A DNA stretch of 63,660 bases, counting the filler, from Folioceros fuciformis (lineage: Eukaryota), in assembly GCA_049999805.1 (NCBI GenBank). It is 9 parts of 9 records of this genome, joined end to end, with 100 filler letters (N's around TTAATTAATTAA, not from the genome) between each part and the next. Parts side by side here need not be neighbours in the genome. Positions count along the whole stretch, not along the records: positions 25,624 to 39,385 come from JBNGIO010005226.1; 8 more parts are not named here. The stretch is one strand, 5' to 3'. Positions 15,781-45,211 of the stretch are shown here, one piece after another. The number at the start of each line of letters is the position of its first letter. The stretch's first letter is position 1. The notes below the pieces were generated by a model. The model saw only the letters and a list, made by a program, of their open reading frames with translations, was not told where the DNA came from and did not search any database. Made by a program: the position numbers and the translations under genes.

Positions 15781-15789
15781 CATCCGCCA

Positions 15790-17697: not shown

Positions 17698-17797
17698 NNN
17701 NNNNNNNNNNNNNNNNNNNNNNNNNNNNNNNNNNNNNNNNNTTAATTAATTAANNNNNNNNNNNNNNNNNNNNNNNNNNNNNNNNNNNNNNNNNNNN
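17698..17797. other. Artificial contig linker N44-TTAATTAATTAA-N44 (also at 25524-25623, 39386-39485, 44421-44520, 51173-51272, 55900-55999, 59708-59807, 62401-62500)
   Basis: Identical 100-bp cassette with stop codons in all six frames, repeated eight times. Confidence 0.97.
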
Positions 17798-18289
17798 TGA
17801 TCTGAATCATGGTTGTTTTTTTCTGAACGGTGTGGTGTGGATGGTGCGGTCGTGTGGTTGCTTCTGGTGGTGGACGGAGAAAGAGGTGGAGTGTTGGTGC
17901 AATGAGTGCGGGGATGGTGGATGAGGATTGACCTCGTGCCTGGTGTGCAGGTGGTGTGTCGAGGGCCGCGTGAGCGGCGGTGAGTCTGGTGCTTGTCCTG
18001 GGACGCGTAGATCGGGTGTATGAGGCGTCGCCTGGGTTGGATTTGGAAATGAGGAGCGAGTCCTCACAGAAGCAGCCGCAGCTCCAGCCCCAGTCCCAGC
18101 GTGGTTTGGTGGCCAAGTCGGGGGCNNNNNNNNNNNNNNNNNNNNNNNNNNNNNNNNNNNNNNNNNNNNNNNNNNNNNNNNNNNNNNNNNNNNNNNNNNN
18201 NNNNNNNNNNNNNNNNNNNNNNNNNGTCCCTGGCTCGCGCGACTGGAAGCCCCAGCAGTAGTGCTGGGAGCAGTAGCAAGTCGAGCTCG

Positions 18290-19162
18290 ATGGACAAGAA
18301 CGGTGCGAGGATGAGACATCCGACCGGAGGGGAGGACTCATTGATGGCGTCGGGGAAGGACGGATCTGGAAGTGTGTCCCCTTGCCTCGGAGGGAGACCG
18401 GGCATAGGCCGGTTCAGGCTGGATGACACTCCCAAGGCTTCTGGTGGACACGGACTTCTTGCGGCGTCGGAGTTTGGGGGAGAGGATGGTCTGGAGTGTC
18501 CTGTGTGCTGGGAGGCGTTTAATGATCAGGAGAATACTCCCTACGTCCTGTGGTGTGGACATACTCTGTGTAAGACGTGTGTGATGGGCCTTCGTTGGGC
18601 GGTCATCAAGCTCCCGGGCCTCTCTCTGCAGCTGCCTCTTTTCATTCAGTGCCCCTGGTGCCAGTTCCTGACTGCGCGGATGCAATGGAAAGGCTCTCTC
18701 AGGCTTCCCTGCAAGAACTACTTTGTTCTGTGGATAGTCGAGAGCGCCAAGGCAGGGAGTGTGAAGCAAAGACCTCATAGCCCTTCTGCCAATGTTTTCT
18801 CAAACGTGGCATTCACACCTTCCAGTCCAGCGGGGGCCTACTGTCATCATGGCCATCTTGACAACCTGCGACCTAGAAGATTGTTGCAAACTCAGGCACC
18901 TTCAGAGAATATGGAGGGAAGCCTAGATTGGGGATTGTTGCGACAATGGTGTGCCAGAATGGTGATGCTCTTTGTGCAGTTCACTGCCAAATTGCCTCTC
19001 GTTCTTCTGCTTTTGTTCATAGTGTTCTATGTGTTACCGTTTAGCAGTCTCGTGCTTGCCCTCTACTGTGTGATAACGGTAGTTTTTGCCGTTCCATGCT
19101 TCCTTATTGTTTACTTTTCTTATCCTAGTCTCAATTGGCTCGTGAGAGAGATTTTGACATGA
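18290..19162 (+). CDS. C3HC4-type RING E3 ligase with C-terminal transmembrane region (start uncertain; N gap upstream)
   Basis: ECPVCWEAFNDQENTPYVLWCGHTLCKTC...CPWC, LPCKNYFVLW and a hydrophobic C-terminus ending LNWLVREILT. Confidence 0.88.
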   Translation: MDKNGARMRHPTGGEDSLMASGKDGSGSVSPCLGGRPGIGRFRLDDTPKASGGHGLLAASEFGGEDGLECPVCWEAFNDQENTPYVLWCGHTLCKTCVMGLRWAVIKLPGLSLQLPLFIQCPWCQFLTARMQWKGSLRLPCKNYFVLWIVESAKAGSVKQRPHSPSANVFSNVAFTPSSPAGAYCHHGHLDNLRPRRLLQTQAPSENMEGSLDWGLLRQWCARMVMLFVQFTAKLPLVLLLLFIVFYVLPFSSLVLALYCVITVVFAVPCFLIVYFSYPSLNWLVREILT

Positions 19163-19554
19163 TGATGCCAGTTCTGCCCTGCAAGAACTCTTCCTAGGCA
19201 TGTAGCCAGTGTGCTTTCACCGAAAATCTACGTAGCTTTTGTATTCTTCCATTGTTGTTACGGCGTTGTATTGTATACTTGCTTCTGATCAACAGAGCAA
19301 AGTGACGCGCATCTCCAGGTTGGCAGGCTACCTCGACTGAGTGTCCGTGTCATTCTTTTTGCCATGTTTGTCTGCATTACTAGGTTGAAGTAGGTTTGAG
19401 GAGGGCCGTCCTTTTACTAGGCTGTCGTTTCTTCTTTTGTACACCTTCTTGTTATGTAACAACTAGGCATCTGAGAGATGCACTGTAATTTCAGTACAAG
19501 TCAATTTGTAGGAAGTCGCTTGTTGGACGTCCAGCAGTCGTGGAAATTTATGGG

Positions 19555-25248: not shown

Positions 25249-27135
25249 GGTTGTTGTGGCTGTCAGGGTCGGGGCCGGGACCAGGGCCGATGTCGATGTC
25301 GATGGAGGGCACAGGCTCCTCAGGAGCCCAGTGAAGGCAGCCCGAACAGGCAGAACATCATGGCTGCGGAAGTAGCGGAACACACAAGCTCTCGGCCTAC
25401 GCTACCTCTGCCTAGCCTCTCAACTGCAGCTACAAATACAACGCAAGGAGCAAGGTGGCCATGGAGAGATCTGGAATCCGGACGGCGGACGGCGGACGGA
25501 ATGGGTCGGGACGGCGTGAAAGGNNNNNNNNNNNNNNNNNNNNNNNNNNNNNNNNNNNNNNNNNNNNTTAATTAATTAANNNNNNNNNNNNNNNNNNNNN
25601 NNNNNNNNNNNNNNNNNNNNNNNGGGGGCTGGACAGCAGCGCCACGGGAGGGGGATCGCTGCACCGTTGCGGCGGCGCTGGCTCTACTGCTCTGAGGTGG
25701 CGGGGGGGAAGAAATTGTTTCGTTGCCACGGCTAGGGAAATTGCCCAGCAGTGGGCTGATGCGCCACTGTGGTGGTTGGAGCGTTGCTACTCCACTGCGG
25801 CAAGGAGGAATTGCTCAGCAGCAGAAAAGGGGAATTGGCGTCAGCAGATCGGGTAGGGAGCAGCAAGGAGGGGCGGGCTAGCAGGCAGGTTCAACGCCGG
25901 CAGTGGGCTGAATTAATTGCCCAGCAACGGGCGGCACGGGATGCTGGAAATCGGGACAGCTGTGGGCGCGCTGGGGCAGTGATCTAGAACAGTAGCCTGG
26001 CGGTGACGGGTCCTTTGGCGGCTGATCTTCAATGCACGGGCTGATGATGGTAGTAGGAGCAACATGATTGGAATCGAGCTGGAAAATGAGCTAAAGAATT
26101 AGCTGAGCAGGGCGTTGGCAGAGATAAGAGGAGAGCAACCTGAGCTGAGAACTCAAGCCTGGCTTATTGGATCTAGGCTGGAGCTGGGTAGAAAGGAAAA
26201 AGAAAGAACATGAGAGATCGGCTAGGAAGAGGGGTTTTGGTTGGAAATCGGGATGAGCTTGGAGTTGGAGCCAGAGCTAGATCCAACACTCTTTGGCTAG
26301 CAACAGGATGGGAAAGGTAGGGAGAATGCGGGGGGGAGAAAAAATGGGAAGCACAACAAGCAGCCCCTCCAGCACAATGAATCAGACCCCAACAGCGCGT
26401 AGGTTCCTCTGGTTTGCTTCGCCAATAGGATCTGAAGCCCGGTACCCCACCCTCCTACCTGCAGCTTGAATCCATGGACAAAACAAGACGGGGAGATGGA
26501 GAAGGAAGGGGGAAAAGAGGAAGCGGGGACAAGAGGAGAATGGAGGATAAGGCTGTCTCTNNNNNNNNNNNNNNNNNNNNNNNNNNNNNNNNNNNNNNNN
26601 NNNNNNNNNNNNNNNNNNNNNNNNNNNNNNNNNNNNNNNNNNNNNNNNNNNNNNNNNNNNAGGGATGGGAGCGGCCGCAGTCCCTGCCCTAGCTAGGGCA
26701 CGACCGTTTAGTCCATCATGCAATCAGGCAGCCAGACCTGACATCTAACCCTGACATACCCCATATTCCCACTCCTAGGTTCAAACAATCATTTAATATT
26801 CTATTATTTATTATTATTTAATTATTAAATAATATATACCTTTAATTAATATTAAACCAATCACCAAACCTAGATTCAAACTTTCCTGACCCTATGGTTC
26901 GGTACCAAACCTAATATTTTCCAGGTCTGGGACCAAGCCTATACCCACTCTAATAATCGAACCAATTATTCCATGGTTAGTTAACCTAATTAGAACAAGA
27001 AATAATAGGAAAAATGGCCAGAAAATAAAGGAAAATTAGGGGAAATAAGTAGGAAAAGAAAACCATACCATACCATACCACTATTAACCCTTTTTTAACC
27101 AAAACAAACCACAACCCCAAACTTTGAAGGTTCAC

Positions 27136-27460
27136 AACGAGTCCCAAAGAATTCCTAAGCCGCTTTACAACAACAATCAAAGTGCTATCGCATTTACATA
27201 TAATTTGAAGTTTTATGCTCAAACAAAACACGGGGAAGTGCAATTTTATAAGACAAGTAGTTGACGAAGGCAAACTTCTCGTTCTATATTGTTCAACAGA
27301 ATAGATAACAGCTGACGTGATTACAAAGGCGCTTAGCTCCGTCAAACACCAAGATTATACAACGAATATGGGACTAAGAAGAATATAAGAAGTTAGCTAA
27401 AATACTCAACACAATAGAAACTTAGACCTAACGCTAGGCACTAAGTGGGAGTGTTATTAA
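27136..27460 (+). mobile_element. Ty1/copia RNase H end plus polypurine tract remnant
   Basis: Degenerate YCSTE...ADVITKALS followed by agtgggagtg PPT at ~27444. Confidence 0.6.
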
Positions 27461-27619
27461 TGCATATCTACTCCCTAGGTTAGGGCACGTTTCAGTCTAT
27501 AGACTAGATACCAAAAGTCGAACTTAAGCGAATGGTTACGCGTACGCTCACAGCGTTTTACCTCTATACTTAATGATCACATTTCAATGCAAATCTAATC
27601 CTGAAAATCACAATATCAA

Positions 27620-28566
27620 GAAGAGATGAGCAATACAACAAAGGAGATCTAGTGTGGCTCAAGGTGAAGCCCAATCGCTACTCAAAGCTGCAAGAAGGTA
27701 AAGCAAAATTGTCCTATAGGTATGTGGGGCCATTTACAATGAGTAGAAAAATTTCTGCTGTAGCATATTAACTACATTTGCCTAAGCCTTGGAAGATGTG
27801 TAGGACATTCCATGTGTCCTTGCTGAAATGGTTTGTGGGAGCCCCACCTTTATAACCGTTCTTAGATGGACTTTCTAACCCTCATGCCAAGTTGCCTAGT
27901 AAACCAAGGACTATAAAAGTGCTTGAGTTTCACCTCCTAGGTGAAGAGGGATAGCTCCTACCAAGAAAGTAGGTAGCCAATGGGAAGGGGGGGGGGGGAG
28001 GGGCCATTCAACAAGCAAATCAATCTAAGAAATTTGAATGTTGGTGGTGCTCTCCTTTCCTAGCCTGTAGCGGCGCAAGCCACAAGGGAGCGAGCTTTGC
28101 GAGGTAGAACCATCTATGAGCTCTTCATACGTTGGATGGGTGATCAGGTTGTGGAGCTAACCTAGGAGTCTAAAGCTTTCATTGATGCATTCAAACACCT
28201 TGTCAAGTCTCAACTTGGTGATGAGGATGGACAAAATCCCCTAAAGGAATTCTAGGGAGGAGGAGGATGTCACGGGAGCTAGGTAGACCGTGATCCAAGG
28301 ACAAGTATGCTATCGCACCTTATTAGTACATAGAGGAGCAGCCACCACTGAGATGGAGGATTGCAGCAAGGCAAGCTAGCTAGGGATAGAACTAACCATA
28401 GATAAGGCTAGACTAGGTTAGTTAACTAGACCATAGTTAGCAAACCTCATCTAAGAACACAAATCAAATGGGGGCCACAAGTCGTAGAGGTCCGTGCACC
28501 AAGATCAAGACGAGGGCTCTTCTTTGGTCTCCTATAGTCGCGCTTGTGCTCTTGTGTGCAGTAACA
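27620..28566 (+). mobile_element. Ty3/gypsy (chromovirus-like) 3' end: integrase C-terminus, degenerate chromodomain, PPT and LTR
   Basis: GDLVWLKVKP...YVGPFTMSRKISAVAY*LHLP...FHVSLLK; chromo-like YELFIRWMG...T*E; PPT gggaggaggagga then tgtcacggg at ~28268. Confidence 0.7.
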
Positions 28567-31500
28567 ATCTAAGGCAACCGAATGGAGCACATTGAATCAA
28601 GGAGAGGGCCCATAAGTTGGAGGTAGAACTCAAAAATCTACAGCGAGGTCACAACCTTGAAGCAAAGTCAATGTAGAACAGGCCATTCAAATTTAGGAAC
28701 TACATGTGGGAAAAAACCTGGCAAGTCACCAAAGAATAGCATGCTCAACAATTGGCCAGTGTAGAAAAATGAAAAGGTCAGGGGGAATGGCAAGGACTGT
28801 CAGCAGTACATCACATGCTAATTGTATTAAAACAAGAGATTTTGTGCTAATTATGTCAAGTAATGGAGCTCGATAGCACATGGGAGAAGGTTAGAACAGA
28901 GAGCATGGAACTATAGCTCTAGTTGGTAGAGGCAACCTTCCAGATCTCTGTGTATTAGAGTAAGACGAAAGACCTGTGAACCAAAAGAACTTGACAAAAT
29001 CGCCCTTTGCAATCAAAGGGTAGAAGTTGATCTAAACAATTTATGCTCAAGGGAAGTGAGGAAATAAGGAGACTCCTTACGAAACAAATACTAGGCCCCA
29101 TGATGCTGATAAGAAGGTTGTGGTGACAACACCTCGGGCACCTCACCGTTGAGGAGGGGGCCTTGGGCTGCCTCTAGTGTCCACACTTATCACACTATTG
29201 TCAAGACGTTGGGTTTCGTTACCATAAAAAAGCGATATAGTTTCTCTCTGTCCATCAGATGGATGGATTGAGGGCTTACCTTTCTTACTACATCAACTCC
29301 TAAGTCAAGCATATCTTGTCCAGGCCCCTATGTCACAGCCAATTGGATAGACAATTGGGTCAACTTCCCTGCCAACTCATAGACTAATGCAGCATCAGAT
29401 GCTTCTTACAGTTAGTCCTTCCAATAACCTAGGACAATCTACCAGATCTTAAGAACATCTTCCAAAGACTGTGCTCTATCACCTAGGTAGACCTCCTAAA
29501 ATTTGTGTAACTCATACACTTTTGTGCCAGATTTGAGGGCTCTCTTCTAGCTCCGGTGAAGCATAGGATAGACTAGATACTCTAGCACTCCTTGGTGCTT
29601 TTCCCTCAATAGCTAGCTACACTCCTACCACTACTCATCCTACTAACTCCCCCCCATCAGGCAAGAGCTTCCAAACTAGGTTAATGCCAAGAGAGAAACA
29701 CACTCCCCTTGGGATACCTCCACCCCATAACCTTACTAGATACCACGTGATATGTCCAACACCAAACCCCTGTTCAACCAAGAAACAATAGTGGACATGT
29801 TAAGAGAAAGATGTACCCTTTACAATAAACAATTAAGAGTAAGCCCCTCAACCGTGGCCACTACACTTCAGATCCCACCAGACACTATGCATAAACACAA
29901 CCGGCACCACCACTTGGGCAAGAGCAAGGAGGGACAGAATAGAAGGGCAAAGTGTGACAACTTAAAGCCTACAGGCTCACTCCACCTTATAGGACCCCTC
30001 TCTCTCCTACCTCATCTCTCTCTCGCTAGGTAATTACTATTTTAATGAGTCAACTAAATTAGTGTATGGAGTCCTTATGACACCATGGAATCAAAGAAGA
30101 GACCTAGCCTAGCACTTCATACTACGATGTGGTCCCATTTGGGCATACTTTCATCCCTCTTGCTCTTAAGACTCATAGGGCTATGGCTAAGAACTTTTCA
30201 AGGTTCATCAAGGAGTGCGTTAAGATTTATTAGAGTCATAGGAATGTTGTTCTCCCTCTTTCCTTTGTGGTGGTCTTCTTTCAACAATGCGTATCCATTG
30301 CTTTGCAAAGAGCATTGGCCAACGCGATTTTTAGAACAGCAACAAGTGCTGGTCAAACGGCTTCTTCAGCACTAATGGTAGGTAGGACTTTTGTTATTCC
30401 ACATTATGACATTTTTAGAGCAATAGGTAGTTTTTGAGAATGATGTTCGAAGGGGCTAGTACCCCTTTTGGCCTTTGGCCCTGCTCGGATTGTTCCTCCA
30501 ATCTTTGGAGTAAATAGGATGTTTCATATCTTTTTCAATAATAGAAAATACATTCTAAATAGTGTATTATCACCAATGACTAATTTAGGCTTTCCTAGCA
30601 TGTGTCCCATCATTAGTATTAATGAGCCAACCATACTGCCAACTAACCCTACCACCACAAGGATCTTCAAACTATCCTAAGGTATTGAATGCTAATTAAT
30701 CTCCTTAGATCTTGTGGGTGCCGTCTTTTGGAGATTGCTTCCTTGGTCTTCTCCTTTCATTGACCTACTCTCTAGATGGCGTGTCCCCTGTACAGTCAGA
30801 TCTGTCACTCGGACAGTCACTTCCATTCCATTTGTAACCCCGTCTAATAGTTCCCACAACAACTATCTCACAACTATCACATTTAATAGTCCTTCAACTC
30901 CTCGAATTGACCATTTAGTTCCAAAAATTAGTTTACTGACCTCTGGTCAATAAATATTTTAACCCCACGGTTAGTTGGTATACTGACCTAAGGTACATTA
31001 GCTTTTAACTAGGAAAAACACAACATTAGTGTGAGTGGGGAGTTGCAAGAACTAAGCTCCTAGTGGAATTTAAGGATTTAAGATAGCACATAAGCAACAA
31101 TCTATCTAGCCGGTAAATCAATAAAATTGGTAAATGTCGGTAAAGCCAAAAATCCCAAAGGGACTGTTGGTAAGTCCCACACCTAGGTAGTGATGTGGCA
31201 AAAACCTCCTAGGGTTGGTGACAAAAGTGGGATGAGTAGGCAAAGTGGCTAGAGAAGGAGAGGTGTTAGTAGGTAGAGTTAGGCTTAAAAATGGTGATTC
31301 TCATAGCAAAAATGAGACCAGTAGAAAGGTTGTTATGGCTGCTAGAGTTTGACCCAAGGGTGTCGGGACAATCCTTGAACTATCAAGCATGTGAGGTAGG
31401 TGGGGAAAGTAAATTTGTCATGAAGGTGACCGCCGATTATGTAAGAAACCCTCATCCAATGTTGTTTAGAATAGAATAGCAAATATATATCTTAAGTAAA

Positions 31501-32630
31501 CGAATGCTAGGATAAATGAACCTAGCTTAGCTAGATATTTTGCAAACTAGCTTAGAAATAGCTAGATGTTTCTAGGCAAGTTGAGTCGGAACACATGTTG
31601 GGTATTTCCCAACTTGTTGTTGGTGTAACCCTACTGCCCAACGTGGGAAGATAGCATAACTTAGGGTACAGTAGCAAGGCATCATGGAAGGAGCAGCGCT
31701 GATGCAAGAGCATGAAGCCAACTCAGCTGGACGCTGTATCGTGAAGATGGTTGGTGCTAGGCAAAAGGGGAAATAAGGGCAAAAGTCGGTAGTTGTTGAA
31801 GTTGCGCCGCGCAGCACTATAACTTGGGGAAGGCAGCTCAAACCCTTTTTTTGTGTTCTCTGGAATTGGGAGCTAGGATGAAGAATGTTTTCAGTGCCTT
31901 TGATTCCAGAGTTGTAGTTCATGGCGTAACTTACTGACTCACCAAGTTGCGTGTGTCACGCAGCTCCTTTCAAACCCAGATTGCTGCAAGTCTTTGTTGC
32001 AATCTCTTCTTCACTTCAACAACGTTTTCAATCTGGGACAAGCATGCAAGATGTGGGAGCAAATGAGCTGGGTGGAGGCGGCCATGCAACTACAGCAAGG
32101 CAGCATCACCCACATGCCCTAATCGTGCTAGCAGCAGCAGCAGCAGTTCAACTCCAACAAGCTTTTCCAACCTTCCAGAGTTCATAGCGTCCGTTACAGA
32201 GGTTGATTGCTTTAAATTCACATACCGGATTGTTTGCCTCATTGAGACAAATCCATTGGTATAATTTTTGTTCAATTCAGAGTGAAATCCAGGGACTAAA
32301 TGCCTTGGAGGAGTTGGTCACCTAGGGTTTCAGTTGGGGAATGTTGGCTATTTGCAGCCAACACTCCTTTTGTTGTAGCATACGGGCTAGGGCTCTTGTG
32401 GACAGTGACATTTCAGGTCTTTCATTACATATAGCTTAGCTCTTAGCTTAGCTTTTAGACCAGCTTCCTACAAGTCCTTTTTTGCAACTGTGACTTTGGC
32501 ATTTCACAGTTCTGGACTAGTATGGTTTTCTAGCTTTAGCAGCAAGCCTGACTACAGTACTGGCTTGCCTTCTTTTCCTCTTCCAGCCTAGTTAGCTGAC
32601 TTGTTGTTTGTTGTGCATGTTCATGGGGGA

Positions 32631-35600
32631 ATGCAACCTAAGGAGCATGAGACCAGTCCTCGTTACAGACTGAGATCCCGTGACATCCCTAGACAAAGCA
32701 CCCCACCTAGACGTGCATACTCACAACGGAGGAGGGCAGCCAAGAGGCAGGAGCAAGCTCATGAGCTTGTGGAAGTCAGCTTCGACCTCGACACTCCACC
32801 TTCAACAGCAAGGCCAGCAACCAACTGGTCCCCATTTACAAGTTTCCTCATCTCTGAGCCTTCAACTTTGGAGGGAAAGCAAGCTCCATTTTAGAGCCAG
32901 CTACCTGAGGAGGAGACATAAGGAGAGTTCTTGCTAGAGTAGTGCTTGGGCCATACACCCTTGGAGCAGCCCCACTTTGCCAACTTGGGGTGGGCAGCCT
33001 TCAGTTCACTCAGGCCTTAGATTTCCTCACCTAGAACAGCCATACATCAACCAGTCACGTGCTCAATATTCTGAAGACTCAGACGACAGTTGGAAGACTA
33101 CATGCGGAAGCGTGTCTTCAATACAAAAGATAAATTAAGAATAATACAAAATACAAATAGTTGTCCTTTTATAGGTATCACCCTAAAGGGTGTGACTTTT
33201 CACTAGCCTAGCAAATTAACATAACTCTTGGTTGGCTAAACTAGCATGACTTATGGTTACTTAACTCTAGTGGACTGGTACCCCTTCTAACTACAACATG
33301 GAGGGGGGAGCACCTTACAGGCATGAGAGATTTTCAGGGAGGCTAGGTACACAGCCCCTACTTACTTCAGGTTATTTGTCAATGGCACGATCAGTCGGGT
33401 CAAGTTTAAACATGGTGCTGTGTATAGCCACCTCTACATGTTTGAACAATTAGCTGGGCATCTAGCAGACGAGGCTCTAGACTTGTATGAGGTGCACCAA
33501 GCTGAACTCACAGCAATGGTGGCTACACCTAACCCCCTGTTCCAAAATGCCTTGCAGCTAGCTTACAATGCTAAGCTAGCTAATGCAATTAATGCTCACA
33601 AGGCTGGTATTGCTGTTGGGAGCATTGCAGCCACACTGCAACCACCAACAGTGGTCAGCCTAACAACAGCAGAAATCGCTGCAGCTACTGCAGGTGTGGA
33701 TGCTGACATCCTCACACCCAAGCATGCCAACCCAATGGAAGACTTTTTGGGGATTTTGGAAAAGGCTTTTCCCCTCAAGACACCTGAGAAGATTGCAGAG
33801 TTGGCAAGTTTTCCACGCAAGAAAGGTGAAACTGTTCAGATGACCTTCCATCGACTACAAAAATTGCGAGAGGGTACAGGAATGCTAACAGACCAGGAGG
33901 CAGCCCAAAAATTCCTCACAGCGCTAGAAGGTGATCCACTTTTCCACTTTCAGCTCGTCACATCCCTTGTGGATAAGTATGGAGACAGTTATACTTTGGA
34001 GCAGGTGCATGAGGAGGCGGAGAAGAAGGAGATTGCATTCTCAGCATATGCCTCAAGGCATTCCAAGGCCTTCACGCATTATCAAAGCATGTTCTCTAGT
34101 AAGAACATAGCTGCTGGGAGTGTAGGTGCTGGGGCATCCAAGTCTACTCAAGCCAAGCCAGCCAAAGCAGGAGCTACAGCAACCTTGGAGGCTTTGTGCA
34201 ATCGTTGTGGCAGTCTGGAGCACATGGCTCCGGCCTGCAAGTGCCCTCCTGAAGGACTGCTTTGTTCTCATTGCCACAAGCCTGAACATCTTGTGGCTGT
34301 ATGCTTCCAAAAGCATCCGGAGTGAAGGCAACAACGAGGGGGCACCACAAATGTTGCAGGGACAGCTCCCACTTCCACTGATTCAAGCCCTTCGGCTATA
34401 GGCAATTCAGGAGTCTCGCGTAGCAGACAACAACGAGAGAAGGCCAAGGCCGAGGTGGCTACTAATGCAGACAAGCTCACTTCACTGGAAGCAACCGTGG
34501 CTGCTCTTGCCACACAGGTGGGGGCACTTTCAGCTAGTATCTCTAGCAGCGTAGCTACTTCCAAGCCAGCTGGGACAACCAGATTGGTGGCATCACAAAT
34601 AGAGGATGATGAGGAATATGGGCTACCGCATGAGGCCTGTACAGTAGATGTGGCAACATCAGCGTCACAGCCAAGTTCCCCCCTGCCTTCTACATGGGTA
34701 GGACAAGACCTTCGGTGGTTGACCATGGCTGCAGTAGCTGGATCTACTGGACCAGTCACACGACAGCGTGGGGCAAGGGCTGCCATGGCTCAGACTTTCA
34801 CCCCCCTTCCTCCAGGAGCATCCATCCCGGTTTGAGGACAGGATCACTTGGATGATGGACAGCTGAATATGGCTGGTCCAGGGTTACAGGACAGGTCACC
34901 TATGCATGCAGTGGGTGCCCAACCTTTTCAGGCTGGGGGTCGATGTCATCTCTTGCCACAGGTGATGAGCACTGAGCAATTGGCCCAGCGCTTGGCAAAT
35001 GCGCCGTTGTTTTTAGTTCAAGACATGGGCATCAGTCTTGGGCAGTTGAGCCAGGCCTTGAGGAGTGGAGAATCAACAGCATTTGTCACAATGACTGCTG
35101 GAACAGCTGATAGTGAATGGGCTGCAAGTTTGCCAACAACCTCAGCCACAAACATGTCATTTTCAGCAGTGGACATGGCTCCACAGTGGGACATGGGATC
35201 TATGCTAGGGGTATACACCTCTCAACGTGCCACGTCCATGCCAAGTTGCCCTTGTGTGCAGCCCACCAACCGCATGAAGGTGCGTGTCGGCAATACCATG
35301 GTGGATAACTGAGAGGGGCATGTCACTGTCAACGGATATGCACCAAAGATGGTCCTGTTGGATACTGGGGCGCAGCCTATCATCATTGGCAAGACCCTTG
35401 CTGCAAGGCTGCGACTGGGTGGAGATGCTCTCAAAGCATCACCGTGGAACATCAGGACAGCATCTGGGTCAATTGAGCCTGTCTGTGGAGAGACTGTACA
35501 ACCAGTTACCATTACGTTGAAGCCCGGCACAGCCTCCTCCATGACGCTTGCCTTGCATTGTGTAGTGACCACGGCCACAAATTATGATGTGCTTTTTGGG

Positions 35601-38110
35601 CAGGAGTTCCTCTTTCCTCCAGGCATAGGTGTGGACATCTGGTTCGAGCTCGCCTACTATAGGCCTGATTGGAGGAACGGAGGTCAGTAGGTGGCCTAAT
35701 TGCCTCTTGATCTCCATGGAGCCAGTGAGGTGGACACTGCCACCTTGATTGCTCCACTGGTGCTTGCATGCACCTTGATTCTTGACACCAGGCAGGTGGA
35801 CACTTGGCTGGATACCAATCTTGATGACGAGGATGGAATGATGGACCAGCCAGGACAGTCATTAGTAGCAACCTCGTGCTTGAGGGATATGTTGTTGAAA
35901 AATGACACGGATGACCCAATTGCAGACGTCTTGCATGTGGCCACCCCACATGTGCAATTGGCCCTTCAAAGGATGCAGCCACCTCCTGCACCGGATGAGC
36001 AACCAACGCTCGGCGATGTCAATCAGTCCATCATAGCATGGACACCCTCTACACCTGGCTTAACAGTTCTGGAACTGTTTGGGGGCCTATGCACTGGATT
36101 GGAAGCCATGCTGCAGAATGATGGGCTGGTTGTGGCCCAATACATTTATTGTGACAAGTGTCCCATAGCCAGGAAGCTAGCTACTTTTCGAATTTAGGGA
36201 CTTCAATCCAGATTTCCAGCACAGCTGCCACTCATTGCCATGGCTGCCATGTTTACAGCCCTTCCACAGGATGTCCAGTACATCCAGGTTGGGCACATTC
36301 AGCGCCTACCACCCATAGGCATCGTAGTGGCTGGTTGGGAATGCCAAGGGTTTTTCTCAACTGGCGCTGGAGCAGGTTCACAAGATACGCGCTCTGCTCT
36401 TTTCTGGGATTTGCGACGCATCTTGGTGTGGATTCAGGCCCGCAATCCTACCTATGCTTACATTTTGGAGAACACTCCAGCCCAGCTGGATTCTCGACTA
36501 CATATTCGACAGGACATGGCTGTGATCCAGCAGCATGTGGGAGTTCCTTTGTTACTTGATGCTGTACAGGTGGGCAGTTATGCACATCGCTTGCGTAATT
36601 TTTGGACCAACCTTGCACCCCAACCCTTGCTAGAATTGGTGTTGGCTGGTACCACTCGGGACCCATCCTTGAGCCTGGTCACAATCATGGACAGCAATCA
36701 CCAACCTCAGCCTGTCCGTGCTGCAGAGAGGAAGCCTTGGTACAGCACCAATGTCCCAGGACAGCCACGCAATACCCTTCCTACGCTCGTGAGCTATCCC
36801 AGCTCTCATGCATATAGAGGGCAAGGAGCTGGCATGTTGTTGAACACTGACACACAGCAGTGGGAGGAACCCAATGTGGAGGAACGGGAGCAAGTGATGG
36901 GTTTTCACACCCATTCTACAGCAGCACCGCAAGTCACAGAAGCCTGGTCTTAGCCCGTTGGGCTAAGAAGCCTGTTTTTTCAGCCTCAAGTCCAGGGGGG
37001 GACTGTGCATGGACTGCTGGAGCTGAGCACAAGCCACGTCCTTCCGCTGAGAACTTTCTCTGGACAATGGGACCCAAGCTCATAAGCAAGCAGCAAGCTC
37101 AGGTTCGCAGTCTGTTGCTGAAATACAAGGATTGTTTCGCCTTCTCCATGAAGGAATTCAAACGTTGCAATGTGACTGTCTTCCGCATCAAGTTCACCAG
37201 TGATGAGCCCATCTATAGGCGGCGTTATAGGCTCAGCCAAATAGAGTGGGAGATGGTGGATGCACGATGCCAGGAATTGCTGGAGGCTGGGCTTATCCGT
37301 CTCTCAAGCTCAAATTATGCTGCAGCAACAATCATGCCTCCGAAGAAGGATAGCAACGGGATGTGGACAGAGAAGCAAATGTGTGGGGACTATCGTCCCA
37401 TCAACGCTGTGACTACGCAAGACCGATATCCCATGCCAACTCTTGAGGAAATCTTCGACAACATCGGCAATTCTATGTTTTTCTCCATATTGGATCTCCA
37501 GCAAGGATTCAACCAAGTCCCGGTGGCAGAGGAGAACATCAAGAAGACAGCCTTTCATGGCTCTCGGTAGCTATGGGAATGGCTTGTGATGCCCTTTGGC
37601 TTTAAAAATGCATCGGTGACGTTTCAGTGGGTGATGGACATGGTCTTAGCAGGATCTGCACACATGATATGTTACATTGATGACGTGTTGGTGCACAACC
37701 TGGACTTTGAGAGTCACTTGGAGCACCTTGAGGATCTATTCATTCAACTGCACAAGACAAACTTGACTTGCCATCTTGCCCTAAGTGTGAATTTGGCATA
37801 CATACTGTGGCTTATTTGGGACATCGAAGGGTGCCAAAGTGGGTTATGCCACATTCAGCCAAGGTGCAGGCCATCTTGCAAGTGAAGGAGCCAACCAACG
37901 TTTCAGCATTGAGGGCTTTCTTGGGCTTATGCAACTATTACAAGGTATACATCCAAAGTTTCAGCCGAATTGCAAAGCCATTGAATGATCTGCTGCACAA
38001 GGATGTGCAATGGAGCTGGACAGCTGCTGCACAGGAGGCCTTTGACATGCTCAAGGCTCAGCTAACCACGGCCCCCGTGATGGCCGGACCTGATGTTTCC
38101 AAGGCCTTTG
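32631..38110 (+). mobile_element. Decayed Ty3/gypsy-like retrotransposon encoding gag(CCHC)-protease-C5 DNA methyltransferase-RT
   Basis: Zinc knuckles (CNRCGSLEHMAPAC, CSHCHKPEHLVAVC), protease LLDTGAQP, MTase motifs (see next feature), gypsy RT (CGDYRPIN, DRYPMP, KKTAF, MPFG.KNA, YIDD), then RT-RNase H linker LRAFLGLCNYY; truncated at 38110 by a copia LTR. Confidence 0.9.
36060..36953 (+). pseudogene. C5 DNA (cytosine-5) methyltransferase domain within the retroelement polyprotein
   Basis: Motif I VLELFGGLCTG (36066), II YIYCD, III QDV, IV VVAGWECQGF (Cys at 36342), LFWDLRRIL, VI YILENT (36468), VIII HRLRNFWTN, IX EEREQVMGF; one in-frame TAG at 36195-36197; motif X not seen. Confidence 0.87.
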
Positions 38111-39274
38111 TGACACTATCAAAGAGCACACGGGAGCGCGTAGGCATAGAATAGAGAATACAATAGAAAGTAGTTACAGTCGCGTGTCTTATGTACGTGA
38201 CGATTGTGGCAGTTGAATAAACTAACCTACCGACCTGTAAACCCTAGCTACATATATATATATAATATCACTCCCACTCAGGTCTAGGGTTTGTGATTTT
38301 CTTAATTTTTATAGCTATATATGCATGTCTATTGCTAAAGAAACTTAGGCCTAACCAAAGAAACTTCAAACTCTTTAAAGAAACCTCGACGAGACGAAAA
38401 AATAGCTTGTCGCGAGAGGAAAGGTGGACTCTGCCCTAAAAGCCTAGTCCTACAGTCTTCAGTCTTCGGCCTTCAGCTCTTCAGCTCGTCAGCTCGCGTC
38501 TTCATCAGCTGAGATAGATTTCAAAGTGGACGCCGCACTCCAACGCAGGGATTTGCCACCGGCACTCAGCCCCATGCCGCACGCGTGCTCATAGTGTTTG
38601 ATCTTCCCCAGCGGCTTGGTGAGGATGTCTGCAGTCATGCGATCAGTCAGGCAGTAGGTGATTCGAACCGTACCTTGTGCAATTGTCTCCCTGATATAAT
38701 GGTGTTGGACCTCGATGTGTTTAGTGCACGCGTGGAACCTCGGGTTCATAGAAAGTGCGATTGCACTTTGGTTGTCGTAGAGAAGATCTATTGGCAGCTC
38801 TTGCTAGATTCCGAGCTCTCGGAGAGCTCCCACTGACCATGTAATTTCCTTACAGGCTTCAGTCAGGCTCTTATACTCTGCTTTGATTGACAAGAGTGCA
38901 ATGGTGGATTGCTTGCGGCTGCTCCAAGAAATAGCACCGCCTGCCAAGATGGTTACATAACTCGAGATGCTCTTGCGGCTGCCTGGGTCTCCAGCCCAGT
39001 CCGCATCACTATAGACTACCAGCCTCAGAGCCTTCTAAGCATTTGCATTGTACAGGATCCCCCAATCAGTTGTGCCAAAGACATACCTGTAGACCCTTGT
39101 CATCAGGTCATTGTGAGAGCTGTTGGGGTTTGACACAAACCGAGAAGTGAGGCCAGAGCAAAATGCTAGGTCAGGCCTCGTGCCAATCATCAAATGCATA
39201 ATACTGCCGTTCTTAGACGGGTATTGCTCAACGAGAGCCTGACCAGATTCAGGTATGTCCCCTACCTGCTGCAT
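38111..39274 (-). mobile_element. Ty1/copia 3' end (RT end, RNase H, PPT, ~160-bp LTR at 38111-38270) inserted into the DNMT-gypsy element
   Basis: TRPDLAF, FHACTKHIEVQHHYIRE, ADILTKPL; PPT (plus-strand ctcccactca) at 38271-38280; LTR ends tgacactat...ataatatca. Confidence 0.88.
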
Positions 39275-39734
39275 GTATTTAACATTATGTAATAATACAG
39301 GAAACCAATGCCTTCAATCTTATGCTTAGAATCATCACCAAGACAGACAAATTCTGCAGGCTTGCTGTCCTTGATTTCAGTGAAGNNNNNNNNNNNNNNN
39401 NNNNNNNNNNNNNNNNNNNNNNNNNNNNNTTAATTAATTAANNNNNNNNNNNNNNNNNNNNNNNNNNNNNNNNNNNNNNNNNNNNGCGACTTAGGATTCC
39501 ACACACGCCGGCACCCCTCTCCACGGGCACACCGCACCCCCTACTTCGCGTTTTCCACGGCCATGGGTTAGCTAGACAATTGTTGACTTTCTAAACTGCA
39601 CCACCGCTATCTCCTAGTCATCCTATCTAATCTAGCCCTATCTAACATAGTTTCCTAATTATCTCTCCAAGGAATTCTATCAAAACTCCAGAAAAAAAAA
39701 AAAAAAACAAATACCACCCATTTTAAAAGAGACC

Positions 39735-40126
39735 CATCTACCATGTGGTCTCCACACTCTCACTGGTATGCTGGACCCTGATGGTAGTTGCTAGAAAGAC
39801 CTGGGCATTTCAGCCCTAGCTCCCTACTGACGTGTGGTGACAGCAGTCGTCTCCAAGGTATGGCCCAGCCAGGTTTGGGGTAATTGTTCATCAGCTTTGG
39901 ACAAGTCAACTTGCCCTAGGCCTTTGCCATACAATGGCTCAGCCTTGGACTGCACCTTGTGTGTTGCACAAGCCTCCATGTCTGGTCCATAATCTTCACT
40001 AGGATCATCTGGTGTCCTAGTAGTTCCAAGTTCCACGCCATTAATAGGCTTAACAGCATTTAAGTTGGCCGCTAAGGTGCTGACTTGAGTTGTCAATGTA
40101 GCCATGGCTATCTCTAGGGCAGTCAT
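39735..40126 (-). mobile_element. Second fragment of the DNMT-gypsy family (post-gag linker region)
   Basis: TALEIAMATLTTQVSTLAA...EDYG...EAC...LPQTWLG...VTTRQ*GARA aligns by eye with ORF 34455-34835 (TSLEATVAALATQVGALSA...EEYG...EAC...LPSTWVG...VTRQRGARA). Confidence 0.75.
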
Positions 40127-42380
40127 TGAAGGGTCGCTAGAGGAGCCACATGGTGAAGGGGGAGAGGAGGAAGCAAGGAGGAGAGGAGAAAGAGAGGTCT
40201 CACACTCTCACATAATCTCAATTGCAAGGGAGCTCAAGGGGGTATTTATACCCTTTAGAAGAGCTCCCTAGGAAGCTTCACAAGAAGCTGTGCTAGAAGC
40301 TTCCTACAGATTAGCTTAAGCTAATCTAAACAAATGGTACTTAACTAGACACTAATCTTAGATTAAACACATTAGTCTAATCACATTGGGCTTTAATAAC
40401 CCTACAACTTCCCACTTAAAGGCAATTTACCTTCATAGGAGAGTGGTCTACCTCATGCCCGTGAGTGTTCAAGCTTGTGCAAATTAGATCTGCAAAGTTC
40501 TGATTGGTGTGAACTTTGACAAGTTGTACCCTCTTGTCTTCTAACACCTCTTGAATGAAGTGATACTTCATTTCCACAAGTTTGGTCTTCGCATGAAACA
40601 CTAGATTCTTAGCCAATTGGAAAGCACTCTAGCTATCACAAGGCAACACTGGCAGCCCAACCTTGATTCCCAAGTCTCCCAATAAATGAGCAAGCCACAT
40701 GGCTTCCTTGCAAGCCAGAGTTGCTGCAACATAGTTGGCCTTTGTGGTAGATAGCGTTATGCTTGATTGCAAATGAGATCGCCATGAGACTACCCCTCTA
40801 GTGCACATGAAGACATAACCTGATGTGGACCTCCTTTTGTCCATATCCCCTGCATAATCAGCATCCATATATTCAACAACAGATGCATCTTCACTACCAA
40901 AACATATGCACAAAGCTTTTGTACTATTTAAGTACCTAATAACTCCTTTTACTGCCTCGCAATGCTTCTTGCCAGGGTTTGACACAAACTTGCTAACCAC
41001 TCCCACTGCAAAAGCAATGTCAGGACGTATAGCAATCATTGCATACATCAAACTCCCTACACATGATGAGTATGGAACCTTCTCGATTTCAGCTTTGTCC
41101 TCCGCAAGGCTTGAGCAATCCTTGCTCAAAAGTTGCACATATGGAGGCAACGGAGTACTCAATACCTTCCCCTTCTCCATGTTGAAACTTTGAAGCACCT
41201 TGTTAATGTATGCACTCTGAGACAAGTAAAGCAAATGCTTATGTTTGTCTCGACGAATACGCATGTCAAGAATATGGCTAGCCTCTCCCAAGTTTGTCAT
41301 GTCAAAGCGAACATTCAACTTTGACTTCAACGTTGAAATCTCATCACTGCTATTCCCAACAATTAGTATATCATTCACATAGAGAACCAAAATGAGCAAG
41401 CTTCTTAAACCACCTATCACACCTCTACAGTTGGAGTAGGCTTCTTGTGCATCTTGGTCTCATTGAAGAACATGTCAATGCTACAAACAACCTTCTTGGC
41501 TTCTAGAACCCATAAACGTTATCCCATCTCACGAGAGTTACCATAGCCAAGAAAAATACATTTTTTGGACTTGGGTGCCAACTTGTCCCGAAACTCCTTG
41601 AGAACATGGTAGTATGTCTCACAACTAAACACTTGTAGATGCTTATAAGATGGGTTCTTTCTAGACCACAGGTCCTCTAGAACCTGCTCATCCACAGCCT
41701 TATTAGGAGATCTATTAATAAGATGTACCGTAGGAGACACTGCTTCTGCTCCAAATCCGTTAGGCAATCCAGAGTTTGACAACAAACTACGCATCCTCTC
41801 TTGGATGGTTCTGTTTATCCGTTCAGCCACACCATTCTTGGGAGGAGTATACGGGGCAGTCAATTCTCTCTTGATTCCCTTGGAACCACAAAATGACTGG
41901 AAAGCCTTTGAAACGTACTCTCCACCATTGTCTATCCTTAGACACTTTAGTCAGATGATAGACTGATTCTCCACAAGGGTGACGAATTTTTGAAACACTG
42001 TCAAAACATTGTCCTTTTTCCTCAAAGGATAAACCCACACCTTGCGTGAGAAATCATCTATGAAATTGACAAAATAGGTTGCACCGTCTAATGATATACT
42101 GGGCATAGGTTCACAAATGTCACTGTGAACCAATTCAAGAGGTTTACTTTTGTGTTTACCTCTTGCTCCATGTGGTGATTTTGTTTGTTTCCTAGACAAA
42201 CAATGCTCACACACGGAGAAATCGGAGAAGTCAAAAGCAGGGACGTAACCAAAACGAGATAAGATCTTTATTCCTTTTTGAGACATGTTCTAACCAACAA
42301 TGCCACAAGGAAACGTTTGGCTGTTCCGTTACACAAATCACATGATCGTTGACAGTAGTTACCTGAAGTGAGTACAAAGT
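40127..42380 (-). mobile_element. Tnt1-like Ty1/copia element (integrase, RT, RNase H, 3' LTR at 40127-40406), internally deleted and decayed
   Basis: LELVHSDICEP, FIDDFSRKVWVY, NGVAERINRTI, LVLYVNDILI, DADYAGDMDKRRSTSGY, FHAKTK; LTR tgaagggt...accctaca next to a PPT. Confidence 0.9.
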
Positions 42381-42600
42381 NNNNNNNNNNNNNNNNNNNN
42401 NNNNNNNNNNNNNNNNNNNNNNNNNNNNNNNNNNNNNNNNNNNNNNNNNNNNNNNNNNNNNNNNNNNNNNNNNNNNNNNNAGAGAGCAGCAATTATAAAA
42501 GAGACACAATCCATCTAGCGAGGTGCTAGATTGGAAAAGATGTCTCCTAGATGCGCTCCTTAAATGCTTAAAGCTGCACTTGCATAATGAAGAGCAAGAT

Positions 42601-42891
42601 GCTCTGATACCATGATGAAAATCTAGCCTTGCTCTTAGATGCAAATCTTAGAATGTAATTGAATGTATATAAGAAGTAAAGTACAAGCCTTTATATAGGC
42701 TAGGTAGTTGGGCGGTTACAACTATAAGTGGTTGTAACCATAAGTAGTTGTAACCGTAAGTGGTTGTAACCGTAAGTGGTTATAACTACTATAGCTAATA
42801 ACTACCTAAATAACCCTAGGTAGATAATTAAAGTTAAGAGGCCCTAATGAATAGTGCCCTAAATCTAGACTTATTTCATCACTCCCACTCA
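42601..42891 (-). mobile_element. LTR (42613-42881) flanked by a PPT and a tRNA-Met PBS
   Basis: Plus strand: gctctgatacca | tgatgaaa...tttcatca | ctcccactca; internal 16-bp tandem repeat (aaccgtaagtggttgt-like). Confidence 0.8.
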
Positions 42892-43061
42892 CTATGAATG
42901 CAGGGATGAATTCTAGCTTTTAAATGAGGCCTATAACATATATAAGCTCATAGGTGATGATAATTTAGGTAAAGAAAAGAAAAGAAAATAATACTATATG
43001 CATCTTATAGCATGGTGTGGCAAGATAGGGTGTCAATTTACCGGGCTGTATCAGAACTCCG

Positions 43062-43169
43062 TAGTTAAGTACCCCACTACCCGGATCAGTACTCGGATAG
43101 TTAAGTACCCCACTACCCGGATCAGTACTCGGATAGTTAAGTACCCCACTACCCGGATCAGTACTCGGA
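43062..43169 (+). repeat. Perfect 36-bp tandem repeat x3 (tagttaagtaccccactacccggatcagtactcgga)
   Basis: Directly visible; no spacers. Confidence 0.93.
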
Positions 43170-45211
43170 TGGGGGACTGGTGACTGCTCCGCGTTTTGAA
43201 AACCCATAATATGCACAGTTAAGCTCCTTCCTGATGAATCAGTACCGGGATGGGGACCATTGATTGGAGCCCCCCAAATAGGAATAATGAAAAGGGCTCA
43301 AAAAGGCCCTTAAATAGTAATAAAGGAGGATAAGGCTGAAAAGAAGACCCCGCTACGCGATTGGCGGGCGGGAAAAACCGGTACATTAGTTATGGCCGGC
43401 CACAGGCCACGAGGAGCGTGCTGGCCGGCCACGAGGAGCGCGCCAAGAGGGAAAGCCGTCGTTATCGGCCTTCCCTGAATTTGGAGGCGCGCTCCATGGT
43501 TGCACTTTTGATCAGGCTCGAATCCCGCTGATGCGCGCTGATTGTAGAGGGTACTCCCACGCCGCTGTAGAAGATACTGCCACGCCGCGCCGCACGCCTG
43601 GACAGCACCTGGATTGCTCCTGTATTGCAGTGATTGGGCTGTTGCTAGATCGGTAAAAGTCTGCCACTATTCATCAGTGTATGCAAATTTTATGCTGAGG
43701 GTAGAGCGCGAATGGATTGCTGCCACTCCTGTTGCTAATAAGCTGTATTTGAATTTGTTGTGTGCAAAAGGTGAGTAGCCGCAACACTCCTTAATATTGC
43801 CTTTCATGTTGATAATGGTGGCAGGACCCCGTCGTGCGATGCATCACATGATGGAAAGTGAAAGTGCCCATGCCCCCCCCGGTGCATCGAGGGATGGGAA
43901 AAGAAAAAGGAAGACAAGCCGAAGGAAGAAATTAGCGGCAAGGAGGGAGAAAGGTGCCTTAAACCGCCAAGCGGCGCATGCTCGCATCCTGGGATACGAG
44001 AAAATACCAACATCTGGTCCTGGGCGACATATAGAAGAGGGTGAAGATGACCCTAATTTTGATGCTGATTTCTTGCATGTATGTGCCTTGGCTGCTAACA
44101 CATGTGATGCCGAAGAAGTAGAAGAGGAGGATCTATTGGTGATCCAAACCCACATAGGGAACACGGAAGTGGTAGTAAAGGAAATCAAAAATACCATAGA
44201 GGCTAGTAAGTAAATACTAAGCTGTAATAATAGCACCATATATATTGCTGAAGAATAATAAAATTATCGAAAATGCAGCTGAAATCATAGGGCAGCAGCC
44301 GATAGCTCCCACTCTCCATAAGGACGGGATCCCAATAAATAAATGTGCTGAGGCAGCATCTGCAGAATATCCTGAATTCGACAACGTCGAAATAGAGGAA
44401 AAGTCGGAGGAGTCCGGGTANNNNNNNNNNNNNNNNNNNNNNNNNNNNNNNNNNNNNNNNNNNNTTAATTAATTAANNNNNNNNNNNNNNNNNNNNNNNN
44501 NNNNNNNNNNNNNNNNNNNNAAAATATATAGCATGGCTTTAATCCTTCTGTCTCTTATCATATAGCTTTTTTTTTAAATTTTTATTTTTTTAACATATAT
44601 ATATATATATATATATATATTGAAAAAGAAATGAAAAAACCCATCTGTTTTTGCTGAAAGTTACAGAGTTGCTCTCCTCACCTCCTTGAAAGGATGCCTG
44701 GGTTTTGCAGTTCAGATGCCTCGCTAACGGAACTTGTACCGGCGTAATGGTAAGGACTGAATAAGGTTGAGATTATCTCAAGCCTTTAGAATAGTATGAA
44801 AATATTGGTAACCTAAAAACATTGGCAAGCAGTTACGCCATACCAGGAGCTGGTTGTGCAGATGTTGCCTTCGTCTCGTCTCCTCCCAGCGGTGAGANNN
44901 NNNNNNNNNNNNNNNNNNNNNNNNNNNNNNNNNNNNNNNNNNNNNNNNNNNNNNNNNNNNNNNNNNNNNNNNNNNNNNNNNNNNNNNNNNNNNNNNNGTT
45001 CCTGTCCCCCTCGATGGATGCAGGCACCGTTGTTTGTGTGCACGTGCTAGCCGTATGCTGGAGTTCGCGGTGGGAGCTGCTGTCGCGCAGGTGCTCGGAG
45101 CCTTCGCACCACTGATTCCTCGTCTTTCTTGTGCATTCCATCCTCCTTCGCTCTGTTGGGCACCCTGGGGGATTGCTGCCGGCCCTTCTTTCCCAGCTTT
45201 CTTCCTCCGCC

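Follow-up and report, generated by a model that had tools for sequence, protein, structure and literature searches.

A degenerate gypsy-type retrotransposon with a DNMT3-like cytosine methyltransferase in its polyprotein, most probably from a non-seed land plant

By published description, the closest system to the element reported here is KnitGypsy-Dnmt3 of the charophyte alga Klebsormidium nitens (de Mendoza et al. 2018), a gypsy retrotransposon in which a Dnmt3-type DNA methyltransferase (DNMT) lies within the Pol polyprotein with Ka/Ks < 0.2 (PMC5890265). Its copies have DIRS-like 'A-coding-B-A-B' repeats and are silenced and methylated in the host (PMC5890265). DNMT3 domains of Symbiodinium retrotransposons (SymbioDIRS-Dnmt3), for which a model of cDNA self-methylation has been put forward, gave de novo CG methylation in yeast (PMC5890265). 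A 2025 paper described retrotransposon-embedded DNMT3s in streptophytes and dinoflagellates (PMC12344493), and a 2026 preprint counts 'streptophytes (Gypsy-DNMT3)' among the known DNMTs borne by transposable elements (10.64898/2026.05.21.726589). Here, we analyse an element found in a 63,660-base stretch of the Folioceros fuciformis assembly GCA_049999805.1, the whole of which is referred to as the window. The window element is a dead member of this already known Gypsy-DNMT3 kind, which the land-plant setting extends.

A sequence-only reading had proposed a gypsy-like retrotransposon carrying a C5 cytosine methyltransferase (MTase) between its protease (PR) and reverse transcriptase (RT). Positions 33298-38112, probably extended on the 5' side to about 31446 by a repeat and leader, very probably represent a degenerate Ty3/gypsy long-terminal-repeat (LTR) retrotransposon of the Gypsy-DNMT3 kind, belonging to a multi-copy family. 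Frame 0 (coordinate mod 3 = 0) is open across 33327-36953 except for six internal stops, at 34323, 34833, 35310 (TGA), 35688 (TAG), 35697 (TAA) and 36195 (TAG), before the closing stop at 36951 (TAG), and encodes gag, protease and C5-MTase in a read-through translation of 1209 positions. The contiguous stop-to-stop segments are 33327-34325, 34326-34835, 34836-35312, 35313-35690, 35700-36197 and 36198-36953. The six open reading frame (ORF) starts listed in the earlier reading (33420, 34455, 34848, 35349, 35700 and 36240) are all in frame 0, and the gag knuckles, LLDTGA, the MTase motifs in canonical order and YIDD that it had named were all present. Feature coordinates are collected in Table 1.

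The start of gag is most likely the ATG at 33298 in another frame, which would imply an extra frameshift near 33330-33366; the ORF 33271-33453 reads MEGG...ERFSGR and resembles the N-terminus of the relative P0003 (alignment A1). Two CCHC zinc knuckles (C-X2-C-X4-H-X4-C) were located at 34197-34304, and their residues C291, C294, H299, C304, C313, C316, H321 and C326 are invariant in 9/9 aligned relatives (A1). The protease matched PF13975 (gag-asp_proteas) with an E value of 1.5e-7 and PF13650 with an E value of 1e-6. The RT, 61% identical to those of P0004/P0361 (tblastn), is RVT_1 with YxDD and is preceded by the protease and followed by RNase H (RH), as in Ty3/gypsy elements. A third frameshift was placed at about 37775-37783. 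Homology to full-length relatives stops at 38112 within RNase H, corresponding to residue 1643/2300 of the relative P0370. No integrase (INT) was found in the window copy within its contig; since relatives (P0370, L031 and L003) carry one, its absence is a truncation or interruption of the window copy and not a trait of the lineage. The Ty1/Copia fragment that lies beyond has 983 relatives at E <= 1e-20, with the Pfam families RVT_2 and rve, and the likeliest explanation is a nested insertion of a Copia element into the gypsy element, at which the assembly was broken.

On the 5' side, unique contig sequence (depth 10.9 in run X1 and 8.1 in run X2, both from the organism itself) ends at 31445, and the summed depth is 90-370 from about 31280-31460 on. 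A 5' repeat with a leader of ~1.85 kb starting at 31446-31460 would tentatively fit the layout of L003, a nearly complete relative (6380-15704) from a metagenome. There, repeat A (6380-6671/15228-15519; 292 nt, 92% identity, spacing 8848 nt) encloses the coding region, repeat B (15051-15235/15520-15704) flanks the 3' copy of A to give the layout A-coding-B-A-B, and the 5' repeat lies 1.3 kb ahead of the first gag match.

The question of whether the METHYLTRANSFERASE is real, and to which class it belongs, could be answered: it is a DNMT3-like C5 cytosine methyltransferase. The motifs follow in canonical order in frame 0 (I, LFGG; IV, GWECQ; VI, ILENT; VIII, HRLRNFWTN; IX, EEREQVMGF). In the profile check proposed by the sequence-only reading, the retropepsin (PF13975, 1.5e-7) and RVT_1 (1.5e-18) families were matched, but Pfam PF00145 on the window copy alone reached only 19.9 bits compared with a cut-off of 22 (E 5.6e-4, 66 residues); intact relatives exceed the cut-off (28-51 bits), and the domain call consequently rests on the relatives, the PDB profile search and the fold. 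A word-indexed search with the domain returned 110 proteins at E <= 1e-3 among 4256 scored candidates, which were 664-2116 residues long (best 1.7e-84, 49% identity), and an exhaustive search of cluster representatives returned 1352 at E <= 1e-3, 583 at E <= 1e-10 and 205 at E <= 1e-30 (best 3.2e-73). A profile of 14 domain sequences (A2) was searched against all PDB sequences. DNMT3A was the best match (3.3e-20, 75 bits) with colinear motifs I-X, followed by DNMT3C/DNMT3B at about 1e-17, M.HhaI at 1e-9 and DNMT2 at about 1e-3; no DNMT1 chain was present among the 57 PDB sequences matched. Tobacco DRM (1.3e-11) matched profile positions 12-142 only, as expected because DRM enzymes are circularly rearranged. 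An AlphaFold model of the window domain calculated with A2 had a mean pLDDT of 86.6 and a pTM of 0.85, and in a Foldseek search of the PDB ranks 1-50 were all DNMT3A/B/C (E about 3e-14, TM 0.66/0.71). For the uninterrupted 251-aa ORF, 30/30 Protein Atlas matches fell in PF00145 clusters. The domain therefore has its best profile and fold matches in animal DNMT3A/3B/3C and shares their motif order, but it is only about 17-20% identical to the solved chains and is without PWWP or ADD. Unlike the DNMT3 enzymes of hosts, it sits between a retroviral-type protease and an RT, and its motif IV is often ECQ.

The MTase is a vertically inherited, integral domain of the element's polyprotein and is neither a captured neighbour nor a product of misassembly; the sequence-only reading had argued from the shared frame for an integral domain and against a captured neighbour. 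In each of the five closest long relatives (P0003, P0005, P0006, P0018 and P0031; 1214-1437 residues) a single unbroken ORF encodes the protease and then the DNMT, and these proteins align to gag-PR-DNMT of the window over its full length. In P0361 the DNMT runs directly into the RT, and P0370 (2300 aa) encodes gag-PR-DNMT-RT-RH-INT-PHD in one ORF. Metagenome contigs were scanned with two conserved peptides, giving 265 pattern matches, 186 of which were confirmed by tblastn; 80 loci were fetched. When P0370 was mapped on these, the full colinear order PR-DNMT-RT-RH-INT-PHD was observed in 27/80 and at least PR-DNMT-RT in 47/80, with DNMT-RT-RH in one further locus, PR and RT without a half-length DNMT match in two, and RT before DNMT in none; the remainder were cut by contig ends or had too few domains. 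At the nucleotide level the window is only about 64-75% similar to these loci over RT and PR pieces (18 high-scoring segment pairs), which indicates that they come from other species.

A DNMT match was present in 259 of 276 proteins and ORFs examined. Their domain order was PR-DNMT or DNMT-RT in 40, RT-DNMT(-INT) (RMI, RM, PRMI) in 105 and DNMT-INT only in 51, and the DNMT stood alone in 63. A DNMT tree was calculated with FastTree from the 241 domains covering >=230 profile positions (18 shorter ones were dropped), and an RT tree of 102 rows was obtained with the same program after removal of 20 RT matches of <140 positions; both are unrooted. In the former, all 36 PR-DNMT(-RT) rows including the window copy fall in one set of 43 rows (support 98), which also holds seven rows of unassigned architecture, and the rows nearest to the window copy are the P0003/P0361 cluster. 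In the latter, a split with support 100 divides the 11 rows that have the window architecture, including the window RT, from the 91 RT-DNMT-INT rows; those nearest to the window RT are L003/P0004 (62% identity). The two trees are thus congruent on the architecture grouping, and both place the window copy in the PR-DNMT-RT group.

Selection was estimated from the intact loci L031 and L036. For the DNMT domain dN was 0.17 and dS 1.34 (ratio about 0.13), for the RT 0.058 and 1.74 (about 0.03) and for the linker after the DNMT 0.37 and 0.84 (about 0.44). The value for the DNMT indicates that the domain is conserved by purifying selection in intact relatives. In both loci a single in-frame TAG (L031:5083-5085, L036:4661-4663) separates ORF1 (gag-PR-DNMT) from ORF2 (RT-RH-INT-PHD). 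It is followed by CAG TTA or CAA TCA, a context that we take to match the UAG-CAR-YYA leaky stop of tobamoviruses, and it suggests that the TAG may be subject to programmed read-through.

The element belongs to a repeat family of many diverged variants, in which the DNMT part is as repeated as the remainder. From runs X1 and X2, 691 and 703 short contigs, respectively, were placed on 31000-39385 at 90-100% identity; those of X1 comprised 209 at >=99%, 279 at 95-99% and 203 at 90-95%. The summed word depth in X1 was 100-181 in the DNMT bins (36040-36879), 130-203 in gag and 91-235 in the RT, compared with 10.9 in the unique flank 31000-31279, so that the MTase part has about 9-17 times the depth of the unique flank, although summed depth is not copy number. 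In one contig of X2, position 34514 is followed directly by 37506, with 2991 bases from gag into the RT missing; it would represent an internally deleted family copy. It was rejected as a DNMT-less variant, as the deletion spans gag into the RT and was seen in this one contig only.

The window copy itself is dead, being interrupted by six internal stops and at least three frameshifts, heavily depleted in CpG and broken off in RNase H. The observed/expected ratio of CpG is 0.31 in gag-PR-DNMT, with TpG at 1.45 and CpA at 1.64, compared with a CpG ratio of 0.63 in the gene-bearing scaffold; such values are the mark left by prolonged methylation of cytosines and their deamination. The frameshift before the RT in the earlier reading was recovered in so far as the RT does lie in another frame, but the shift is inside the C-terminus of the MTase, at about 36940-36950, right after 'VTEA' and just before motif X, and is a lesion of decay and not a domain boundary. 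A programmed frameshift between DNMT and RT was rejected, the shift being inside the DNMT domain and P0361/P0370 reading straight through. The window copy cannot methylate, given its six stops and its frameshifts; within the contig it also lacks an integrase and all but the beginning of RNase H. Self-methylation of its own cDNA or copies, as had been suggested for it, can accordingly apply to intact relatives only, for which it is inferred from the literature.

KnitGypsy-Dnmt3 resembles the present element in being of the LTR/gypsy type, in carrying a non-rearranged Dnmt3-like DNMT in the polyprotein ORF and in having a streptophyte host (PMC5890265). Its DNMT is under purifying selection (Ka/Ks < 0.2 there, about 0.13 here), and the A-coding-B-A-B layout is that of L003 (PMC5890265). 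It differs in that its host is an alga, whereas here it is most probably a land plant, and in that the window copy is dead. SymbioDIRS-Dnmt3 and SymbioLINE-Dnmt are also retrotransposon-borne C5 DNMTs, those of the DIRS elements being Dnmt3-type and within Pol; the DIRS elements, however, have a tyrosine recombinase, the LINE carries its DNMT in ORF1, both occur in another host lineage, and their acquisition is regarded by the authors as independent (PMC5890265). The EpiLTRs of Cymbomonas and Euglena are LTR elements with a C5 DNMT as an accessory epigenetic domain, but there the DNMT groups as sister to DNMT4, occupies the 3' end of pol and is accompanied by a Dam-like adenine methyltransferase and a chromodomain (10.64898/2026.05.21.726589).

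A second and commoner architecture, RT-RH-DNMT-INT-PHD, was observed in P0008, P0027 (Haematococcus lacustris), P0117 and about 100 others. These polyproteins (P0027, P0008 and P0117) have a homologous DNMT (35-44%), a gypsy RT, RNase H, integrase and a PHD finger, but the DNMT follows RNase H instead of preceding the RT and they lie on the opposite side of the split in the RT tree. No description of this arrangement was found in the available portions of the literature examined.

In its intact form the lineage has a single polyprotein made up of gag with two CCHC knuckles, protease, DNMT3-like C5 MTase, RT, RNase H, integrase and a C-terminal PHD finger, divided in some sub-lineages by one in-frame TAG into gag-PR-DNMT and RT-RH-INT-PHD. 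The following course may be proposed as the likeliest for such intact copies. The protease of intact relatives would free the DNMT, which might then methylate the new cDNA of the element, or its new insertion, de novo; a fresh copy would carry host-like CG methylation and would not be treated as foreign DNA. The PHD finger linked to the integrase may read histone tails and choose insertion sites, to judge from the general role of this domain. In the L031/L036 sub-lineage, with the DNMT in ORF1 upstream of the TAG, the enzyme would be made in gag-like amounts exceeding those of RT and integrase.

The host organism is most probably a non-seed land plant. MGAT2 (N-acetylglucosaminyltransferase II), on scaffold 1-17697, is 62-65% identical to angiosperm proteins, 60% to that of the fern Ceratopteris and 58% to that of Sphagnum, with a best match at 73%. 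The same scaffold carries a PPR-E-DYW gene, and within Archaeplastida the PLS/DYW subfamily is found in land plants only (PMC13386178). Taken together, the two genes identify the assembly as that of a land plant, one without a close relative among the named proteomes of the database. A Cyclin_D1_bind domain protein and the N-terminal half of a sugar/MFS transporter (Table 1) are further host genes that lie off the scaffold of the element. An internal duplication of PPR sequence offset by 306 nt was observed in the PPR-E-DYW gene (10225-10647 versus 10531-10953, 83% identity).

A number of observations weigh against the element being a resident of land plants and against its domain being a working DNMT3-like enzyme, and each has a bearing on a rival explanation. 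The window has 24 N runs and is not a single chromosome piece (N-run map): the N44-TTAATTAATTAA-N44 linkers, in which TTAATTAATTAA is a six-frame stop spacer, are scaffold joins and single 100-N runs are gaps within scaffolds, so that the window consists of unplaced scaffolds joined end to end, and features separated by a linker are without physical linkage. The land-plant marker genes PPR-E-DYW and MGAT2 are on a scaffold other than that of the element, and no host gene was found on its contig, 26661-39385, among ORFs of >=70 aa in 25624-30000 or of >=60 aa in 30000-33300. For the neighbouring Copia, no named land-plant sequence was a close match (best match 69%; named matches 37-49%, from angiosperm and fungi), and the named carriers of the DNMT family among the matches are all algae, with the orders PR-DNMT in Mesostigma, DNMT-RT in Closterium and RT-DNMT in Haematococcus and Monoraphidium. 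All this would be expected if the element were real but its contig came from a green alga or another co-sequenced organism and had been swept into the unplaced scaffolds. We nevertheless regard such an origin as unlikely. The relative with the nearest RT, L003, shares its 55-kb contig with an intron-less PPR-E-DYW ORF (17970-19355; DYW_deaminase E 5e-40) 2.3 kb beyond the element, and L014, from the same metagenome, has a split Myb/MYB-CC gene (LHEQLE) upstream of its element copy; these neighbours show that the lineage does live in land-plant-type genomes and make a land-plant home likely. The multi-copy variants at 90-100% identity were moreover found in runs of the same organism, in which the unique flank is also present at a depth of about 8-11, and the strong loss of CpG fits a CG-methylating host. 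A land-plant origin of the element's own contig is thus likely. The wider proposition, that Gypsy-DNMT3 (gag-PR-DNMT-RT-RH-INT-PHD) is an anciently inherited, multi-copy resident of two or more land-plant lineages, the window organism and the plant of L003/L014, with the sister arrangement RT-RH-DNMT-INT-PHD in chlorophytes, is offered tentatively, as a serious possibility that falls a little short of probable. No report of gypsy-DNMT elements in land plants was found in the literature searched, supplements and figures being outside its scope.

The domain itself admits two further explanations. One-off capture of a host DNMT3/DRM fragment, or a chimeric misassembly, would be in keeping with the single DNMT copy in the window, where a search for further copies did not find a second, and with the position of the region in an unplaced repeat-rich scaffold. 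The reading as a Gypsy-DNMT3 element has limits of its own: the trees have no outgroup and were made by the fastest method, and the RT tree, composed of elements found through their DNMT, is silent on DNMT-less cousins. An LTR pair, primer-binding site, target-site duplication, integrase and PHD finger are not demonstrable in the window, where homology does not extend past 38112 and the contig runs only to 39385. Against capture or misassembly, the order gag-PR-DNMT-RT recurs in many independent proteins and in 47/80 loci of other assemblies, the trees of DNMT and RT agree, the domain is covered at the depth of a repeat in a separate assembly made from the organism's runs, and an intron-less domain between an in-frame retropepsin and a gypsy RT, with motifs not rearranged as in DRM, is not what a host DNMT3/DRM gene would look like. 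Capture or chimeric assembly is excluded for practical purposes. The other explanation is that the DNMT-like domain is a non-catalytic module, for example for binding DNA or chromatin, kept for another role in retrotransposition. Motif IV is ECQ and not the usual PCQ in the window copy and in many relatives, and to our knowledge Pro-Cys is near-universal in motif IV of C5-MTases. Relatives alternate between GWECQ and GWPCQ, so ECQ is not a private lesion, and PCQ is kept in some sub-lineages. KnitGypsy-Dnmt3, the only streptophyte element tested, gave no detectable methylation in yeast; human DNMT3B failed in yeast too, and the authors called the result inconclusive (PMC5890265). The window domain has Glu in place of Pro in motif IV, an internal stop and a motif X lost to a frameshift, but it retains the motif IV Cys, the ENV Glu, RxR and FxGxG. 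Across the alignments the catalytic Cys, ENV Glu, motif VIII RxR and motif I FxGxG are conserved, as is an acidic residue following strand 2. Together with a dN/dS of about 0.13, this conservation favours an enzyme that is predicted to be active, and a non-catalytic role appears improbable.

Some further observations concern the other scaffolds. In the scaffold next to that of the element, a gag-like fragment (39761-40126, - strand) shares 34% identity with the gag region of the element (residues 384-502); it adjoins a Copia pol (40416-42289, - strand) and represents another, more distantly related member of the superfamily. No direct repeats except N runs were found around the element (28000-48000), and an Rfam scan of the whole window gave 0 matches at the gathering score.

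Table 1. Features of the window and domains of the one-ORF relative P0370 (the latter in residues).
Feature	Position	Strand	Remarks
MGAT2 (N-acetylglucosaminyltransferase II)	3312-4679	+	Apparently intron-less ORF
Cyclin_D1_bind domain protein	6246-8678	-	Apparently intron-less ORF
PPR-E-DYW gene	9347-11944	-	866 aa; intron-less; RNA-editing-factor type; scaffold 1-17697
Sugar/MFS transporter, N-terminal half	23394-25037	-	Apparently intron-less ORF
Linkers N44-TTAATTAATTAA-N44	17698-17797, 25524-25623, 39386-39485, 44421-44520, 51173-51272, 55900-55999, 59708-59807, 62401-62500		
Gap-free contig with the element	26661-39385		100-N gap on left; N44-TTAATTAATTAA-N44 linker on right
Upstream repeated region, tentatively 5' terminal repeat and leader	31446-33297	+	Depth rise in runs X1/X2; boundaries unproven
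gag	33298-34325	+	ATG 33298 (frame 1), then frame 0; stop at 34323
gag C-terminal and linker region	34326-35312	+	Frame of gag; stops 34833, 35310
Retropepsin-like aspartic protease	35322-35612	+	VLLDTGAQP; Pfam PF13975 and PF13650; residues 666-762 of P0001
DNMT3-like C5 cytosine methyltransferase domain	36033-36944	+	Profile A2 matches residues 903-1206; internal stop 36195
MTase motif X remnant	36947-36970	+	Frame 2; three-frame translation versus 'LLGQAMDL' of relatives (A1)
Ty3/gypsy RT	37040-37780	+	ICYIDDVLV (YIDD); frame 2; internal stop 37568-37570; RVT_1 E 1.5e-18
RT C-terminus and RNase H start (first third)	37783-38112	+	Frame 1; RT_RNaseH_2 E 5e-5
Ty1/Copia pol, C-terminal fragment	38489-39313	-	2 stops; contig end 72 bases beyond
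P0370: PR	635-730		
P0370: DNMT	954-1085		Pfam
P0370: RT	1395-1548		
P0370: RNase H			
P0370: integrase			
P0370: PHD finger	2252-2296		

DNA methylation is the chief defence of plants against transposons, and a transposon with a de novo methyltransferase of its own inverts the usual roles. To date, such elements are on record from dinoflagellates and from a single charophyte alga. The window copy is a fossil without function, and the interest lies in its lineage: what is added here is that the PR-DNMT-RT lineage is large (205 representatives at E <= 1e-30), that its DNMT is under purifying selection and that it occurs beside hallmark genes of land plants. If this is true and any copy is active, a transposon-encoded writer of 5-methylcytosine would exist in land-plant genomes alongside DRM, CMT and MET1. 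The DNMT might serve as camouflage by imitating gene-body methylation, might limit the element itself, or might act with the PHD finger in targeting. If the element is confirmed genome-wide, the role of its DNMT would become testable in bryophyte-grade plants, for which transformation systems and methylome data exist.

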